The position numbers and the translations under genes are program-made. From NCBI RefSeq assembly GCF_040938485.1, contig NW_027272607.1:186001-250000 (forward strand): DNA of 64,000 bases, read 5' to 3'. Within the stretch, counting starts at the first letter, position 1; each line of letters begins with the position of its first letter. The stretch is from Diadema antillarum. Taxonomy: Eukaryota. A model generated the notes under the pieces. That model saw nothing but the letters and a program-made list of their open reading frames with translations. It was not told the DNA's origin and searched no databases. Positions 13,241 through 29,229 of this stretch are shown here, piece after piece.

Positions 13241-13818
13241 GGTAAGCACTATCTGGGCACCCGTCCCGCTTCATCATGAATATTCATCATCTACATGTAT
13301 CCGTAATACCGTTGAAATACATATTTTTTTCATTTCCCGGCAGCGTTTTTACATTTCTCGGCAAAACTGAACATTTTTCCATCTCCCGACGAGACGTTTT
13401 AACATTCCCCGTTGGTGCAATTTTTCGAGATTTTTACATTTCCCGGCCATACGTTTTGCACGTATCCAGCGTTCTGCCATTTACTAGTACAGTATCTTAC
13501 TGCGTCGTAAGCACTATTTGGGCACCCGTCCCGCTTCATCATGAATATTCATCACGCAGTAAGATACTGTACTAGTAAATGGCAGAACGCTGGATACGTG
13601 CAAAACGTATGGCCGGGAAATGTAAAAATCTCGAAAAATTGCACCAACGGGGAATGTTAAAACGTCTCGTCGGGAGATGGAAAAATGTTCAGTTTTGCCG
13701 AGAAATGTAAAAACGCTGCCGGGAAATGAAAAAAATATGTATTTCAACGGTATTACGGATACATGTAGATGATGAATATTCATGATGAAGCGGGACGGGT
13801 GCCCAGATAGTGCTTACC
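13241..13818. repeat. Perfect inverted repeat: 264-bp arms (13242-13505 / 13554-13817) with 48-bp spacer
   Basis: No mismatch found between the arms by eye; the ORF track shows the same 77 N-terminal residues on both strands. Confidence 0.95.
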
Positions 13819-14984
13819 CACTCCTCCGTCATTCGCCGCTTGGCAGAAAGAGCTATAGAGAAGCAGCAACATCTGTATGTATGTTTTATCGACTACACGA
13901 AGGCGTTTGATAAGGTTAAACATGAAGAATTGTTCAAGACACTCGACAAGCTAGACATTGATGACGAAGATAAAAGGTTGTTGGCAGACCTGTACTGGAG
14001 GCAATCAGCTGCGGTACAGCATGATGGAGAAGTTGGTGATTGGCAGGATATTGAGCGAGGTGTGCGACAAGGATGTGTTGGTTCGCCATACATGTTCAAC
14101 TTATACACAGAGTCAATGGGACGCCTATCGACGAATTACCTGGCTTTGCAATCGGAGGCAGTCAACTCACAAACATGAGGTACGCCGATGACACGGTGAT
14201 TCTAGCTGACAGTGCAGAGAAGTTGCAGGGATTGATGGATGTTGTCTCCAGAGCAAGCGAGGAAAAGGGGCTATCGATTAACATCGCGAAATCAGTAACC
14301 ATGGTCTTCAGCAAAACTGCACAGCCACCTCGATGTTCGATTATGATAAATGGACAAGAGCTGAAGCAGGTGTCATCTTTCAATTACCTCGGTAGCCTGC
14401 TGACTTCAGACAGCCGCTCAGAACAAGAAATCAAGCGTAGAATTGGCATTGGAAAGACAGCGTTTCAGAACATGCGCAAGGTGATGACGAACTGCAAATT
14501 GTCCATCGCCACAAGGAAACGGTTCTTGAAGACATACATAATTATTTATGGTCAGCTATGACATACGGCGCCGAGACATGGACAGTTAATAAGCCGATGA
14601 GACACAGAATAGAAAGTTTCGAGATGTGGTGCTACAGGCGAATGTTGAAAATATCATGGACGGAAAGAAAATCAAACACAGAAGTACTAGAAATGGTGTC
14701 GGCTGAATGTGAGCTGCTCTCCACCATCAGGAAAAGCCAGATGCAGTTTTTGGGCCATGTCGTGAGGAAGAGGCAAACTGAACATCTAGTCCTGTCTGGA
14801 TTTGTGAATGGGAAGAGATCACGTGGACGACAGCGACTCACTTTTCTTTCTGCAATGGCTGGATTAGTCGGCGAGAGAGGATCTACATTGCTGCATTCGT
14901 GCGACGATAGAGGGAGATGGCGGAAACATACTGCATCAGTGATCGCCAACGGGCAGTGACGTCCATGGCAGAACAGAGAGAGAG
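13819..14984 (+). mobile_element. 5'-truncated RTE-clade non-LTR retrotransposon (RT domain and C-terminus, two frameshifts)
   Basis: FIDYTKAFD, GVRQGC, RYADD, FNYLGS, YGAETW, FEMWCYRRMLKISW, RGRQR motifs across ORFs 13810-14178, 14073-14561 and 14558-14959; very short 3' UTR ending in an (AG)n tail. Confidence 0.93.
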
Positions 14985-19507: not shown

Positions 19508-19917
19508 CTAGACCGAGGCAGTGGCCGGAGCGGTACCCGATGGAGATGCGGTGGGTTTCACGTCGGATGTTGCAGCGGCGGGAAGACTACTGTCTTCTTC
19601 AGATCTGTCGGGCGGCACATCGATGACTTGGTGGTCTTGTCTTCCCTCTCCTTCTCCTGCTCCTCCTCCCTCTCCTCCTTCTCCTTCTCCTCCTTCTCCT
19701 CCTCCTCCTCCTTCTCCTCCTCCTTCTCCTTCTCCTTCTCCTTCCCCTTCTCCAACTCGCCCTCCCCCTTCTCCTTCTCCAACTTCTTCTTCCTCTCCAA
19801 CTTTCTCTCGTCCTCCTCCTGCCCTCGTACAGCAGGTGGGGAACCACGAGGGACACCATGATGCCTGGCAGGTGGGGCACCAAGATGGCCAGATGGGATT
19901 TGGAGGGGGAAATTCTC
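19508..19917 (-). CDS. Predicted terminal exon of the membrane protein (EFPPPNPIWPSWCPTCQASWCPSWFPTCCTR, (GE)n tract, S/T/A/P tail, TAG)
   Basis: Acceptor ccatttccctctcgtttcaaacag; phase matches the phase-1 donor at 21100. The internal codon repeats differ mainly at synonymous third positions in this frame. Confidence 0.65.
19640..19822. repeat. (CTC/CTT)n tract, read on the minus strand as Gly/Glu codons
   Basis: Read directly. Confidence 0.9.
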
Positions 19918-21099
19918 CTGTTTGAAACGAGAGGGAAATGGAAAGGTGATCGCAGATCGCGACAACTTTCAGAAGTAATTATATCACGAGCAAATCACTA
20001 GACGCAACAGCCGATTAAGCCTTAGCTTCTTGTTCAGTGTTACTGTTGTGGTTTCTTCAATTTAAAGATACAATAAAAGACGCCTAAAATTATTTGAATG
20101 AAACTGTCATGTTGACCCTGCATGGGATTTTTGGTTTAGATTACCGCTTCTTTAATCCACAGTGACATTTGATCTATATTACAATATCAAGTTACATAGT
20201 TAATAGAATCTGAGACGAGACTGATACAAAGTTTTGTGTATACATAGTGACTGTGTCGCAATTACCACAAATGGTGGATAGATTTTGATAAATGGTAATG
20301 ATCAACTGCATACTGGCACAAAAATACTCTCTAGTAGGTCTCATCAAACAAGGTCAAGGTCTCCTTAACTTCCTCTTGAAATGACCATTTCAACAAATGG
20401 CATGAACTAAAATCATACGGGATGTGTGTAACATTCTAACAAATTGCCTGCTATAATAGTGTTATAAATGACAAATGAAATATATTATTTCCCAAACAGT
20501 TATGAGTGAAAATAAAATGTTATATTAGAAATCCGGTTAAGCTACAAAGTCGCCCAAACATGACTTTTCTTACAAGTGGTCTCGCAATAATAGATCCTAT
20601 GGAGTTTTTAATATCGTTATTATTTTAAAGTCCATAACTTTTATGATGAATTGTCAAAGAAAATTGCTTCCACCGTTTACTTTAAGCAAAATAATTGTTA
20701 TTTGTTAATAGCGACAAGGGTATACTAGATGACGAATATTTTATCGAGTGTTCACAACCTGTCCGAGATGGCACAGTGAATATGAGTGTTGTCATTTTGA
20801 CGTTATACCAAAATCTGTGACGTCAACAGCTAAGTGTATAATTTTGAGTAAACAATCGATCCTAACTAACTTTGGTTGGATAAAACTGTTCTCTTTGCAT
20901 GAGAGGGCTGCCTTCGTAAAACATGATGTATTCCACTTTCAAAATAATATTTGTCTTGGTTTTTTGTTTTGTTTGATTGTATGTTTGTTTGTTTGTTTGT
21001 TTGTTTGTTTGTTTTTTGTAAACGCTGAGTTATTGTAGGGATTATTTATTATAAAGCAGCGTTGGTATTAATCCACGATATATACTAGGAGCAGTATAC

Positions 21100-22903
21100 C
21101 TGTTTGGGCGTATTGACGGAGATCCTCCTCGAGTGAGAAGAGCCTGTCCTGGTAGCGATTTTTATCCTTCCCTGTCGAAGAACAAGGGTTGCTCTTGAAC
21201 TTCCCCGTCCCAGCCAGTAGCAATGACCCAAGTGTGATGATGTACTCGGCGACCTTGGGGATGTTCGTTTCCTTGTCGATGATAATAACGAACACAGCTA
21301 TCACGGCAAGGATGACAAGAATAATGACAAGATGCCTGAGGGTCCTGAATAAGTGGAGAATGAGCGGGAGGCGTTTCCTCATGATATCTCTCAGGAGGGA
21401 GGACCGGATGAAAAACTTTGTCTGTGGAGGACCATGAGTTCTGAAGATTCTGTGCTCTGGACCTCCGCCGTCGATTCCCTTCCCGACCGAGTACACCCGG
21501 TTGAAGAGCTGCTGGTAGTGATCGAAAAACGAGACGACGGACACCACGCATGCAACGACGGCAACAGCAATATTGATCCAGGCAGGGTAGATGTGATTGA
21601 GATTTATGGCGATGCCGGCGAGGGTGAGGATTACAATTTCCACGAGCAGTATTACGCTGGCTGAGAAGCGGAAGAAGCATAGAAGGGCTACCGGTATGTA
21701 GTACTTCAATTTCTTTTTATTAACCCGCAGCTCGTCGTACAGATCTAAGTCAAAGTCGACATCGTATCTAAAGACGTAGAACAAGAAGAGCCCCATTCCC
21801 ATGAGGTACATCAGATTAGCCAGCACATAATCAAGGACCACTTCCCGTGTCGAGTAGTCCTGCCCGAGTTGACTCCTGCGAAAGTTGTATTCGTCCTTCA
21901 TCGAAACGGCGTGACACACGTAGGCAATGACATACACCACCAGCGGCAAGGCCAAGACCACTCCCCAATAGACGGCACGAACTATTTGGTGGTACTTTTG
22001 TTGGCGCCACCTCCAGAAGAGAATCAGAGGTGGGATGAAGCCAATCCTCAAAATGTTTAGGTACGGATCATTCTCATTTTGCTGTATCGGCTCTGGGTCT
22101 ACATCGTCTATCTCGGTCCAGCCATTCTTTTGTCTCGATCTTATAAATATCAGGAGGACGATGATCCACACAATTGCCATACCTCCATACGTCAACCCAA
22201 ACGACAAAGGTACGATGGAACATGTAACTTCTTTTGTGAAGCAATCATAGTAAAAACTCGACTGCACTTCAAAAAGACTGTAACCAGGAATTAGGGACCC
22301 TCTGAATGAAGGTTGCGCTGTGCTCTTTTCCTTGCAAAGTAGGTCATTTTCAGAGTTAGGAAGTGACCCACCGGCTGCCTCAACGGTCATCCGAACATTC
22401 CGTATGATGTCTGATAGAGCTACAAATAGACAGGCCTCCATGGTGTCGTTTTGCCCCACCCCTAATGGGCTCTCTCCCAAGTGAACTGTTACTCGCCGAT
22501 TGCCTGGTGACAGCGTGTTAAGCGATAATGGCTCGTAATTGTAGGGAAACGTGAGAAGTGTTTCACCCCTCGTTCCCAAAGACCACACCCACATGTTACG
22601 CTCCATCATGTCTGCATTTGAATCAGCAGTGATGTTGATTCTCAGCATGACTGTGTAATTCCCGGTTAACTCTTCCACAAGCGCGGTAGTGGTAGCATTG
22701 ACGAAAGAGTCTGGAATTTGGCACCGAACATCGGTTATGTTCGGCAAGGAACGAGAAACGCGACTGACGGGAGCTTGATTGGGAGTTTCCCTCTTAGTAT
22801 GGCTGAACAGCACCATGGTGGAGAGAGTGAGAAACGTGGTCAATAAAAGGGCCGCCATCACAAGGCGCCTCGAGACCGAGACCTGTGTCCGAATCGCCGG
22901 CAT
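21100..22903 (-). CDS. Orphan multi-pass membrane glycoprotein, large exon (signal/anchor, about 200-aa ectodomain, about 7-8 TM segments)
   Basis: Long GC-rich ORF. The track's start at 22996 runs through a 3' splice site (pyrimidine tract ...tattgcag, exon begins 22953); first in-frame ATG is 22903. Hydrophobic segments read by eye; five N-x-T sequons. Donor CAG|GTATAC at 21100/21099; the unspliced form would stop at 21068. Confidence 0.85.
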
Positions 22904-24499
22904 GTTCGTTCTTCCTGTGTTGCCACTGCGCCACTGTGCGGCCACTGTCTTGCCTGCAATATTGGGGAACAATGGACAGAGAAACGTCAATAGCAACTAA
23001 TATGATAAACCAAGCAGTCCCATTTTTCAGCGACAGTTTTTGAGATTCGTCCATTTTCTTCTTTTCTGATTTGCAATATTCAGCTATTGGTTGGCTTTTT
23101 TAACGAAAGAAATCTCTGTCGTAATGATTACATTTTAGACGTCATGCCAGAAAAAAAATATGAAATCAGTCTTACGATGGAAGTGACGGAAATAAAATCG
23201 GCTGATTTCTTCACATAGGAAGTCAGGGACAAGACTACGAGCAATATTAGATTTGTTGTATTTTTATGCTCTTGATGCGACAAGGTCAAATGCTGCCAGT
23301 AATATTATTTTCATTGTATTTCACATGCAGCTTTTTCAATCCGGTCATTGTGAAACTCATTATTCTTCATTCTTAGCGAAACCACCTATCCATGCAACAA
23401 TAAACTACCCACATAATGACACCAGCCATTAGCTTTGATTCTTGTTGATAGGCATGTCTTCCTGTGGTGAAATAGAAGAAAGTGCAGAGAAATTTATCTT
23501 ACATTTTCCCTTCCAACTGTCTTTTTCTTTCTATATCTCTTTAGCCATGTTATCTATTTCATTTTCTATCAATGTTTTAAGTACATAACTATACAGTTAT
23601 ATAAATATACACCTTAATTATGAATGATCATATTGCAGAGACTGAGAAAAACGTGGGGTTAATGATCAAAGGTGTTGAACGCAGACTATTTATACCGAAC
23701 GCGCAATCGTACGTGTGACCTTTCTTCAAAAGCTGTATGGAGGGATTACAATGTAGGTTACCAGACGGGCTCTTAAATATACTGATATAAGCCATTGAAA
23801 CTTCACACAAAAATGTATGTTCATGCAATCCTCCCACAAACTTGTTTTATGCATCAGCGCTGTTTCGAAAAATGATGCATTATGTTTCAATTATGCATAT
23901 GTGATCTTTAAAAGAGGCGGGTTGAACACTTCATAAATTTGAACACAAACACCCTATGAAATTGTTTATCTTACGTACAAATTTTGCACTCCATACTTAT
24001 ACATGTATTATCATACTTGTGACATCAAGAAACTAAGAGATGAAAGCAATATGTTATTTGTAAATATGAGAAAAAAAGTAAGCAATGATTTTACTTTATA
24101 ATCCTCTTAGCACTTGTCAAAACACTTGAAATTGTATCATGAAATTCTATTTAAACAAACCAGCCTATCGTCTTAACTGGAGGTGACGAAATATATGTAC
24201 AAGATAATCATTATTATACACTTTTTTTCCATGATTACATGAACATTACAAGCTGGCAAAGTGAAAAGTAATTTCATAACCCAGTGCAAAATTGTGCACC
24301 TCCTGTAAATACAAACAATCATGATAATGTTCTTTAAGCATGATATGTGGATATTCAGGGATTGGTTTCGTTTTTGTTCGTAAACCGCATGAGAGTTCAG
24401 AGCTTATCTTTTTACAGGATATTTCACAGGAAGCATGTGGTGATCGTGGATTATTGTGGAAGCAAGTTGTCAAAGCACGTCTGCACACGGTTTGGACCT

Positions 24500-25146: not shown

Positions 25147-25960
25147 AGGGATGATATATGATTGGTTGAGATGAGGATTCAGCTTTTAAAGGTATACAGT
25201 TTACCATTGGGAGCAGTCATTTAAGAAATGTTCAACATGTTCAAAATATCACATTATGATGCATATAATGTTATGCCTAGGTCAGTTGTATCACCAACAT
25301 TCTACCATATAAAAAATTCACAATAAAGCATACAAAATGAGAAGATATCACTTTTTTCTCAATAAACCATAACTGTATAGACGATTTAGTCTAGAAACCT
25401 TTTTGTTAAAGTTATTGTTCACATTTTTTTTATATTTTACAATACTTAACATTGACTATACTGATTCAAATCTTTACATTGGTTGTTTCTATATATCCCT
25501 GACTCACATTTTAGAACTATTTTGAAGCACTATACTAAAGGCTGCATTTTTGTTTCATCTGCAAATGGTAAATAATGCCATTAACTTTCTTGTGTGAGAT
25601 ATACTTAGAAACCACTGCATGAAATGTTTTTAAAAATACAATTCTAAGAGGAATTCAAAGTTTATTTGATGAAAATCGGTTTTGAAATGGCTGAGATATC
25701 CAAAAACAAAGTAAGCCAAAGCGAAATATACTAATGAAAGGTGGGTCCCATCTTTTTTTATTTGGATCGCTTTGTTTAGGATATCTCAGCCATTTCAAAA
25801 CCAATGTTCATCAAGTAAACTTTGAATTTCTCTAAGAATTATAATATGCCCTTTCATATTTTTCGTAAGAGGTTTCTCAATATCTCACCAAAAAAAAAAG
25901 AAATCATCAAACAATTTTGAAAACCTGAAAACCCATCTCAACCAAAACTGTACCATCCCT
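25147..25960. mobile_element. MITE family A copy split by a family B insertion
   Basis: Family A left end 25147-25185 and right part 25585-25960, with family B between them. Confidence 0.8.
25190..25580 (-). mobile_element. TTAA-flanked MITE family B (Kolobok-like AGG termini), nested copy
   Basis: TTAA at 25186-25189 and 25581-25584; homologous to 41831-42180, 56365-56722 and 59898-60250. Confidence 0.8.
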
Positions 25961-28361: not shown

Positions 28362-28751
28362 AGGGATGGTACAGTATTGGTGGAGATGAAAATTGGGCTT
28401 TTATAACTTTTTGCGAGATACCAAGAAAACACTTATGATGTAGTACAGAGCATACTATTTTAAGTGGAATTCAAAGATTATTTGACGAAAATCCGGTTTG
28501 GAATGACTGAAACATCCAAAAACAAAGTAAAACAAAGCGATCGTAATAAAGTGTGGGTCCCACACTTTATTAGAATCGATCTTCTTCTTTTTTGGATATC
28601 TCAGCCATATCAAAACCAATTTTCTTCAAATAAACGTTGAATTCCTCATAGAATTACATGTTCTTTCATATTTCATAAGAGGTTTCTCATTATCTCACCA
28701 AAAAATGTTAGAAACCTGAAATTAGGTCTCAACCAAAACTGTACAATCCCT
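28362..28751. mobile_element. TTAA-flanked MITE family A copy
   Basis: TTAA|AGGGATGGTACAG...CTGTACAATCCCT|TTAA. Confidence 0.8.
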
Positions 28752-29229
28752 TTAACGAAAAAAAAAGTCATATTTTCAAATAACATTTTTGCGTAAGCCC
28801 ATGCTGGAGAGTTTCAAGGTGTGGGAGGGGTGTGGTTGCGACCAATTTAATAATTTTGCATAATTTTATCACTTTTCGTAAAAGCATTGTCTGGTTTGTT
28901 CTATTCAGGGAGATGGCATGGATCGCCCTCAAATATCCTCTCTGTATGTAACTAAACTCAACTACACATACAGTAGCCATGGACAACGGGACCAGAGGCT
29001 TGGGTGGAAAATGAAAACAAAGTAAAGAAAGCAAAAGGCAAAGAAAATAAAAAACGCATGGCTTTCCGATAGTTCATTCCTAGATTCCTAACGTCGAAGG
29101 GGGCGGGGCGCTAGTGAGTATTGACCCTTGACCCTGCCATATAGGCACGAGCACATTCACTGACAGAAAATCCAGAGAATTATCGCCCTGTTTCCCAAAC
29201 TGCAGTTATGAGTTATGAGTTATGAGGAA

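Follow-up and report, generated by a model that had tools for sequence, protein, structure and literature searches.

A conserved sea urchin gene from an old, expanded and functionally undescribed family of invertebrate multi-pass membrane proteins

Contig NW_027272607.1 of the sea urchin Diadema antillarum (RefSeq assembly GCF_040938485.1) carries, within the 64,000-nucleotide stretch that we analysed (positions 186,001 to 250,000, hereafter the window), a long open frame on the minus strand that an initial annotation, made from the letters alone, had described as encoding an orphan polytopic membrane glycoprotein. Is this frame a genuine gene, does it stand alone, and what might its product do at the cell surface? 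Based on sequence comparison, we conclude that it is a real, conserved gene belonging to an ancient, expanded and functionally undescribed family of membrane proteins.

The stop-free frame comprises 642 codons (21068-22996, minus strand), and the encoded protein has homologs at E=1e-98 to 2e-105. A DNA contig from a relative spans the exon in one piece; it differs at 80 letters over 1,851 bases, and its stem shows a net deletion of three bases. Over codons 263-601 this comparison yielded 23 synonymous against 17 non-synonymous substitutions (dN/dS about 0.21, binomial P=2.7e-6), a ratio computed from 40 of the 77 substitutions of the listed classes, with those of the ectodomain among the remaining 37. 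Given the strength of the homologs together with the synonymous excess, the gene lies far beyond chance expectation; both of its haplotigs are intact.

The main exon is predicted to occupy 21100..22953 (-), with a 50-nt leader followed by codons 1-601, counted from a Met at 22903 that lies 50 nt downstream of the first exon base, 22953. An acceptor-like AG (22955-22954) directly precedes that base, and the sequence TTT...ATAG/G (the slash marks the junction) recurs shortly upstream of the Met in five paralogs. At the opposite end a GT donor (21099-21098) follows base 21100, behind the codons YAQT, and all six close paralog loci compared at this junction (L004, L005, L007, L008, L009/L010 and L012) have ACAG/GT at the corresponding codon. 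The span first proposed, 21068..22953, thus stands as to its open frame and its upper boundary, but 21068 is likely a read-through stop, with the exon ending at the donor (21100/21099) and spliced to 19917-19508. The putative phase-1 GT...AG intron covers 19918..21099 (-); the paralog L007 uses the same junction when compared with a D. setosum RefSeq protein (P0005), and its own tail exon, beginning at that junction, matches the tail of the D. setosum RefSeq protein at 92% identity. The tail exon (19508..19917, minus strand) encodes GEFPP, a Trp/Cys cluster ending in CC (about 19829-19917), a Gly/Glu-rich low-complexity stretch and a stop, giving a predicted spliced product of 737 aa. The junction to 19917 reads on as TG-EFPP, comparable to the TGEFP...W...CC of the Lytechinus and Strongylocentrotus proteins (P0002, P0003), and neither haplotig has its tail frame disrupted, even though indels are present. 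The Cys/Trp tail that had been pointed out is a trait of this ortholog group but not of the family as a whole; its CC-ending cluster is a predicted palmitoylation site. Within the tail exon, a GA-rich microsatellite (19640-19820) codes for the Gly/Glu stretch and shows in-frame indels between haplotigs. The suggested retrogene origin, at least a recent one without introns and with an intron-rich parent, finds no support here: it is unlikely because the tail intron is at the same codon in L007 and implied by a matching junction in three other sea-urchin proteins, and because acceptor-like sites precede the Met in the five paralogs. The long-form relatives L021 and L024 are likewise each one long frame.

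The protein begins with a hydrophobic stretch (residues 13-35) whose residues 13-33 (22805..22867, minus strand, as are all features below; Kyte-Doolittle peak 2.19) constitute a predicted signal anchor or signal peptide. The basic motifs TKR and RVSR follow. RVSR (residues 48-51; 22751..22762) is a predicted convertase site; under a permissive pattern, a basic stem motif occurs in 5/5 ortholog-group proteins as against 0/16 other short-clade rows, five of which are without an N-terminus. Thereafter comes a predicted alpha/beta ectodomain (residues 55-229; 22217..22741) with five N-x-T sequons (55, 69, 82, 90, 152), five cysteines before TM2 (61/158/190/221/228) and the segment MWVWSLG...SPG. 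Hydropathy identifies seven segments above 1.6 (Kyte-Doolittle), including the N-terminal anchor, and an AlphaFold2 model built from 66 aligned rows (pLDDT 82.9, pTM 0.80) adds an eighth, weaker helix, 551-565, that lies below this threshold. These features bear out the membrane-protein layout of the initial annotation, including its count of about seven to eight helices. In the model, TM2-TM4 (21764..22216; helices 230-263, 302-334, 348-380) are accompanied by a variable acidic loop and a short outer loop with R342. TM5 (21602..21718; helix 396-433) bears a polar stripe of R412/E422/T427/G430/N434. TM6, a predicted cytoplasmic subdomain and TM7 (21269..21586; helices 440-478, 501-511, 514-545) include D461-x-Y463, a beta hairpin, a helix and P513, with a strand and a short helix modelled between 479 and 513. 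The short, weakly hydrophobic TM8 (551-565) and a conserved C-terminal helix (576-600) ending in YAQTG complete the chain (21101..21253). Modelled alone, the ectodomain (pLDDT 84.0, pTM 0.80) shows five strands and two long helices. The sequons would place this domain outside the cell, and alternation of the helices would put residues 461-513 and the tail inside.

Conservation across the whole family peaks in a signature, W-x-W-x2-G-x2-G-x2-LL-x2-P-x6-S-x2-TL-x2-G, at residues 103-135 (22499..22597), where G113 is kept in 59/59, S127 in 57/58, L131 in 58/60 and W105 in 55/59 rows. C61, C190, C221, G430 (59/61), Y463 (55/60) and P513 (59/61) are also near-invariant, and Y598 is found in 47/57 rows. 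The near-invariant positions are thus Gly, Cys, Pro, Leu, Trp, Tyr and Ser, and no charged residue is invariant among the aligned rows. A second tier (R342, E422, T427, N434 and D461), kept in 72-85% of rows, includes R342 in 45/53 and, in TM5, E422 in 42/58, T427 in 44/60 and N434 in 43/60; by ideal-helix angles, the polar residues of TM5 fall inside one 140-degree sector. Within the short clade (defined below), conservation is highest in the signature loop (0.57), the cytoplasmic subdomain (0.55), the C-terminal helix (0.53) and TM5 (0.51), with TM2-4 and TM7 scoring lowest (0.40-0.43).

The label of orphan cannot be retained, as homologs extend to molluscs and Trichoplax. A HMMER search of 1.84 billion representatives recovered 53 matches at E<=0.001; of the 30 looked up, 20 were without a name and 10 were named (Diadema setosum, Asterias, Apostichopus, Anneissia, Antedon, two from Amphiura, Littorina, Mytilus and Trichoplax). 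No vertebrate, insect or nematode is among these 10, a sample that cannot show absence. The products of all 14 named representative homologs (the three closest, the ten looked up and one cluster member, Asterias amurensis) are labelled uncharacterized, hypothetical or unnamed. Three merged searches found 31 loci on 18 contigs of the D. antillarum assembly (1.75 Gb), a minimum for loci yet an overestimate for genes, the assembly holding haplotype duplicates (e.g., C963 at 99%). These results agree with the earlier proposal of an unnamed, lineage-expanded family, and by sequence evidence the family is an old, multi-copy and functionally undescribed one of invertebrates. Five short-form paralogs (L003, L007, L008, L013, L015) lie within 550 kb (C1630:405000-955500), three of them disrupted, and similar paralog pairs are present on C21, C2, C247 and C677. 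In all, a stop or frameshift interrupts L003, L011, L013, L014 and L015, although assembly errors may account for some of these. The tandem clusters and broken copies suggest a birth-and-death pattern. L007 is 94% identical to a D. setosum protein.

The family occurs in two forms: a short form of about 620 aa core, and a long form of 740-1,100 aa, in which about 120 aa, including a hydrophobic segment, are inserted between TM4 and TM5. The two are homologous throughout their length (HHalign 99.9%, 533 columns). In a FastTree phylogeny (54 rows, 552 columns, after removal of 15 rows shorter than 550 aa and addition of 3 Diadema loci; arbitrarily rooted on Trichoplax), the short forms constitute one clade (support 0.99), and the gene in the window, separate from the tandem paralogs, clusters with Lytechinus, Strongylocentrotus and P0006 (0.80). 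One brittle-star member, P0047 (Amphiura filiformis XP_072044695.1), matches the family profile across residues 1-407 (E=3e-42), thereby joining the ectodomain and TM2-TM6 to a ZU5 domain (E=6e-12, above cut-off) and a UPA domain (below cut-off) in residues 526-793, with matches to ZO-1 and UNC5B; this fusion rests on a single gene model. By eye the P0047 C-terminus may be a death domain, for which Pfam gave no match. Separately, P0052 of Mytilus edulis, also a single gene model, has a u-PAR/Ly6-like piece (residues 11-91) just below the Pfam cut-off ahead of the family ectodomain.

The paralogs evolve fast: whole-gene Nei-Gojobori dN/dS for all eight computed pairs, three of which include broken copies, is 0.44, 0.45, 0.73, 0.80, 0.83, 0.91, 0.94 and 1.00. 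The two pairs among L007/L009/L012 give 0.44-0.45, and the three pairs of the intact L017/L018/L020 copies 0.73-0.91, with an ectodomain value of 1.71 for L017/L018. This divergent intact subclade is a candidate for positive selection.

Can the protein be assigned to a known fold? Profile scans of the Diadema protein and of the 66 family rows gave no GPCR, channel or transporter signature, as the initial annotation had stated; no 7tm family is among 25 of the 26 families matched at E<=0.1 by the 66 rows, and none was matched by the Diadema protein at E<=5. Searches with the full model and the ectodomain against solved structures returned nothing above noise, which is no proof of a new fold; an Orco-like or 7tm fold is absent from the listed rows, an absence that does not exclude one. 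From these models we could not place the family in any solved fold. A SLATT 2TM effector was rejected (14 bits against a cut-off of 41, in 1/66 rows).

We infer a receptor- or channel-like function, and a surface sensor of one of two types, with channel output or coupled to adaptors, is somewhat probable. As a tentative reading we favor the former, namely a ligand-sensing multi-pass surface glycoprotein with channel output, because conserved polar residues occupy one face of TM5 and Gly430 and Pro513 are near-invariant. In this scheme, ER insertion by the N-terminal anchor, together with N-glycosylation, would leave residues 55-229 outside; seven helices and a cytoplasmic tail would come next. 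In the ortholog group, a convertase cut at RVSR may free the ectodomain from its anchor. The signature loop could couple the disulfide-bonded ectodomain to the outer helix ends (R342, N434), such that ligand binding would shift TM5 and the long TM6/TM7 pair and let ions or small solutes pass along a path lined by TM5. The protein would probably work as a homo-oligomer, its subunits held together by the cytoplasmic subdomain. Tandem paralogs might diversify the ligand range, with the single-copy gene in the window keeping a fixed role. Several points weigh against this proposal. Conservation of E422, T427 and N434 reaches no more than 72-73%. The ZU5-UPA fusion, albeit in one gene model, favors adaptor signaling over conduction. 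The side of the membrane on which the tail lies is an expectation only, as TM8 is under the hydropathy threshold. The high paralog dN/dS is not concentrated in the ectodomain across the eight pairs, and since the excess extends outside it and three pairs include broken copies, relaxed selection explains it equally well. The Pfam family PF28478, present on relatives, may carry a function outside this proposal, whose pore, ligand and cell location are themselves predictions.

The strongest competitor, though rather unlikely, is a non-conducting signaling receptor, whose ectodomain would bind a microbial, self or environmental ligand and whose cytoplasmic subdomain or tail would recruit adaptors in an UNC5-like manner. 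P0047 is the key witness, as its cytoplasmic module fits both the predicted topology and a sensor role; the N-out, seven-helix, C-in layout, the conserved cytoplasmic subdomain and the rapid birth-and-death evolution are also as expected. However, a ZU5-UPA-type module occurs in 1/66 aligned rows, the near relative P0041 ends before it, and other members end in unrelated tails of low complexity. UNC5 itself is single-pass with Ig/TSP ectodomains; the likeness to UNC5/PIDD-type receptors lies in the one brittle-star protein, the Diadema protein being without the module. It is quite unlikely that the protein is a transporter or lipid scramblase capped on the luminal or extracellular side. Such a role would account for the polar TM5 residues, the Pro/Gly kinks (P320, G430, P440, P513, P560) and the additional long-form insert with its hydrophobic segment, but the 66 rows show no consistent transporter profile match, no internal repeat is apparent on inspection of the helix list, and rapid paralog turnover is unusual for housekeeping transport. 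It is improbable, too, that the family is a diverged branch of a characterised one, nameable via PF28478 or AlphaFold DB. Precomputed PF28478.1 matches are present, among rows showing Pfam, on the long-form homologs P0017 and P0067, whose clade is homologous over its full length to that of the Diadema protein (HHalign), so at least part of the family has already been catalogued by curators. Against this, precomputed Pfam matches are lacking in the three closest named homologs, the accession was not found in the literature searched, and the named homologs are all uncharacterized, hypothetical or unnamed. A membrane-embedded enzyme of glycosyl- or acyltransferase type with a luminal domain is very improbable because no charged residue is invariant, and the GT-C/Wzy candidate failed on profile (Wzy_C at 16.3 bits against a cut-off of 31.7, in 1/66 rows) and the EmbA structural match covers 109 residues at rmsd 10.

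How does the favored channel-type sensor compare with established systems? Insect OR/GR/GRL channels have about seven helices, long helices reaching into the cytoplasm, a conserved C-terminal core and lineage-specific expansions, all shared by this family, and the split between conserved core and variable periphery resembles that of insect odorant receptors. However, those channels have a cytoplasmic N-terminus and no ectodomain, whereas the Diadema protein has an anchor and a 175-residue, probably glycosylated domain with sequons and conserved cysteines before TM2, implying the opposite topology; we therefore rejected membership, with sidedness being predicted. Adhesion, class C and Frizzled GPCRs share an ectodomain, seven helices, the presumed N-out/C-in orientation, possible ectodomain processing and a tail Cys cluster, but a 7tm sequence profile, which would place the protein in that superfamily, is lacking. 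GOST proteins (TMEM87, GPR107/108/180), CLPTM1 and TM9SF likewise have a luminal domain followed by 7-9 helices; none gave a profile match, and the GOLD domain is all-beta, in contrast to the alpha/beta ectodomain modelled here.

Regarding the surroundings, the left neighbor is NAA35, recognized by Mak10 and TPR_NAA35 matches; of the placement between NAA35 and ARNT this side holds, while the right neighbor is shown only as a gene carrying a PAS exon. Between NAA35 and the gene lie broken reverse-transcriptase fragments (RVT_1; 13789-14959, plus strand), likely from a LINE. Two copies of a very high-copy, MITE-like element with inverted-repeat joints and extreme contig depth are found at about 25580-25960 and 28400-28760.

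A coral study (PMC13044578) reports putative membrane association for 115 of 161 annotated conserved 'dark' orthogroups. The present family numbers dozens of fast-evolving copies in one echinoderm genome, with a confident model that has no convincing match among solved structures. It is possible, if doubtful, that it represents a structurally new class of ligand-gated channel-receptors with ectodomain and membrane folds of its own, present since the placozoan-bilaterian ancestor; repeated expansions in marine invertebrates would then have built a chemosensory or immune repertoire. Its rating as new holds only if PF28478 is a family of unknown function and AlphaFold DB holds no annotated neighbor. 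Animal ligand-gated channels and receptors fall into few known folds, and such an ancient family would, if the proposal is true, add a sensing system missed by annotation pipelines; the conserved single-copy gene described here is the best entry point to it.
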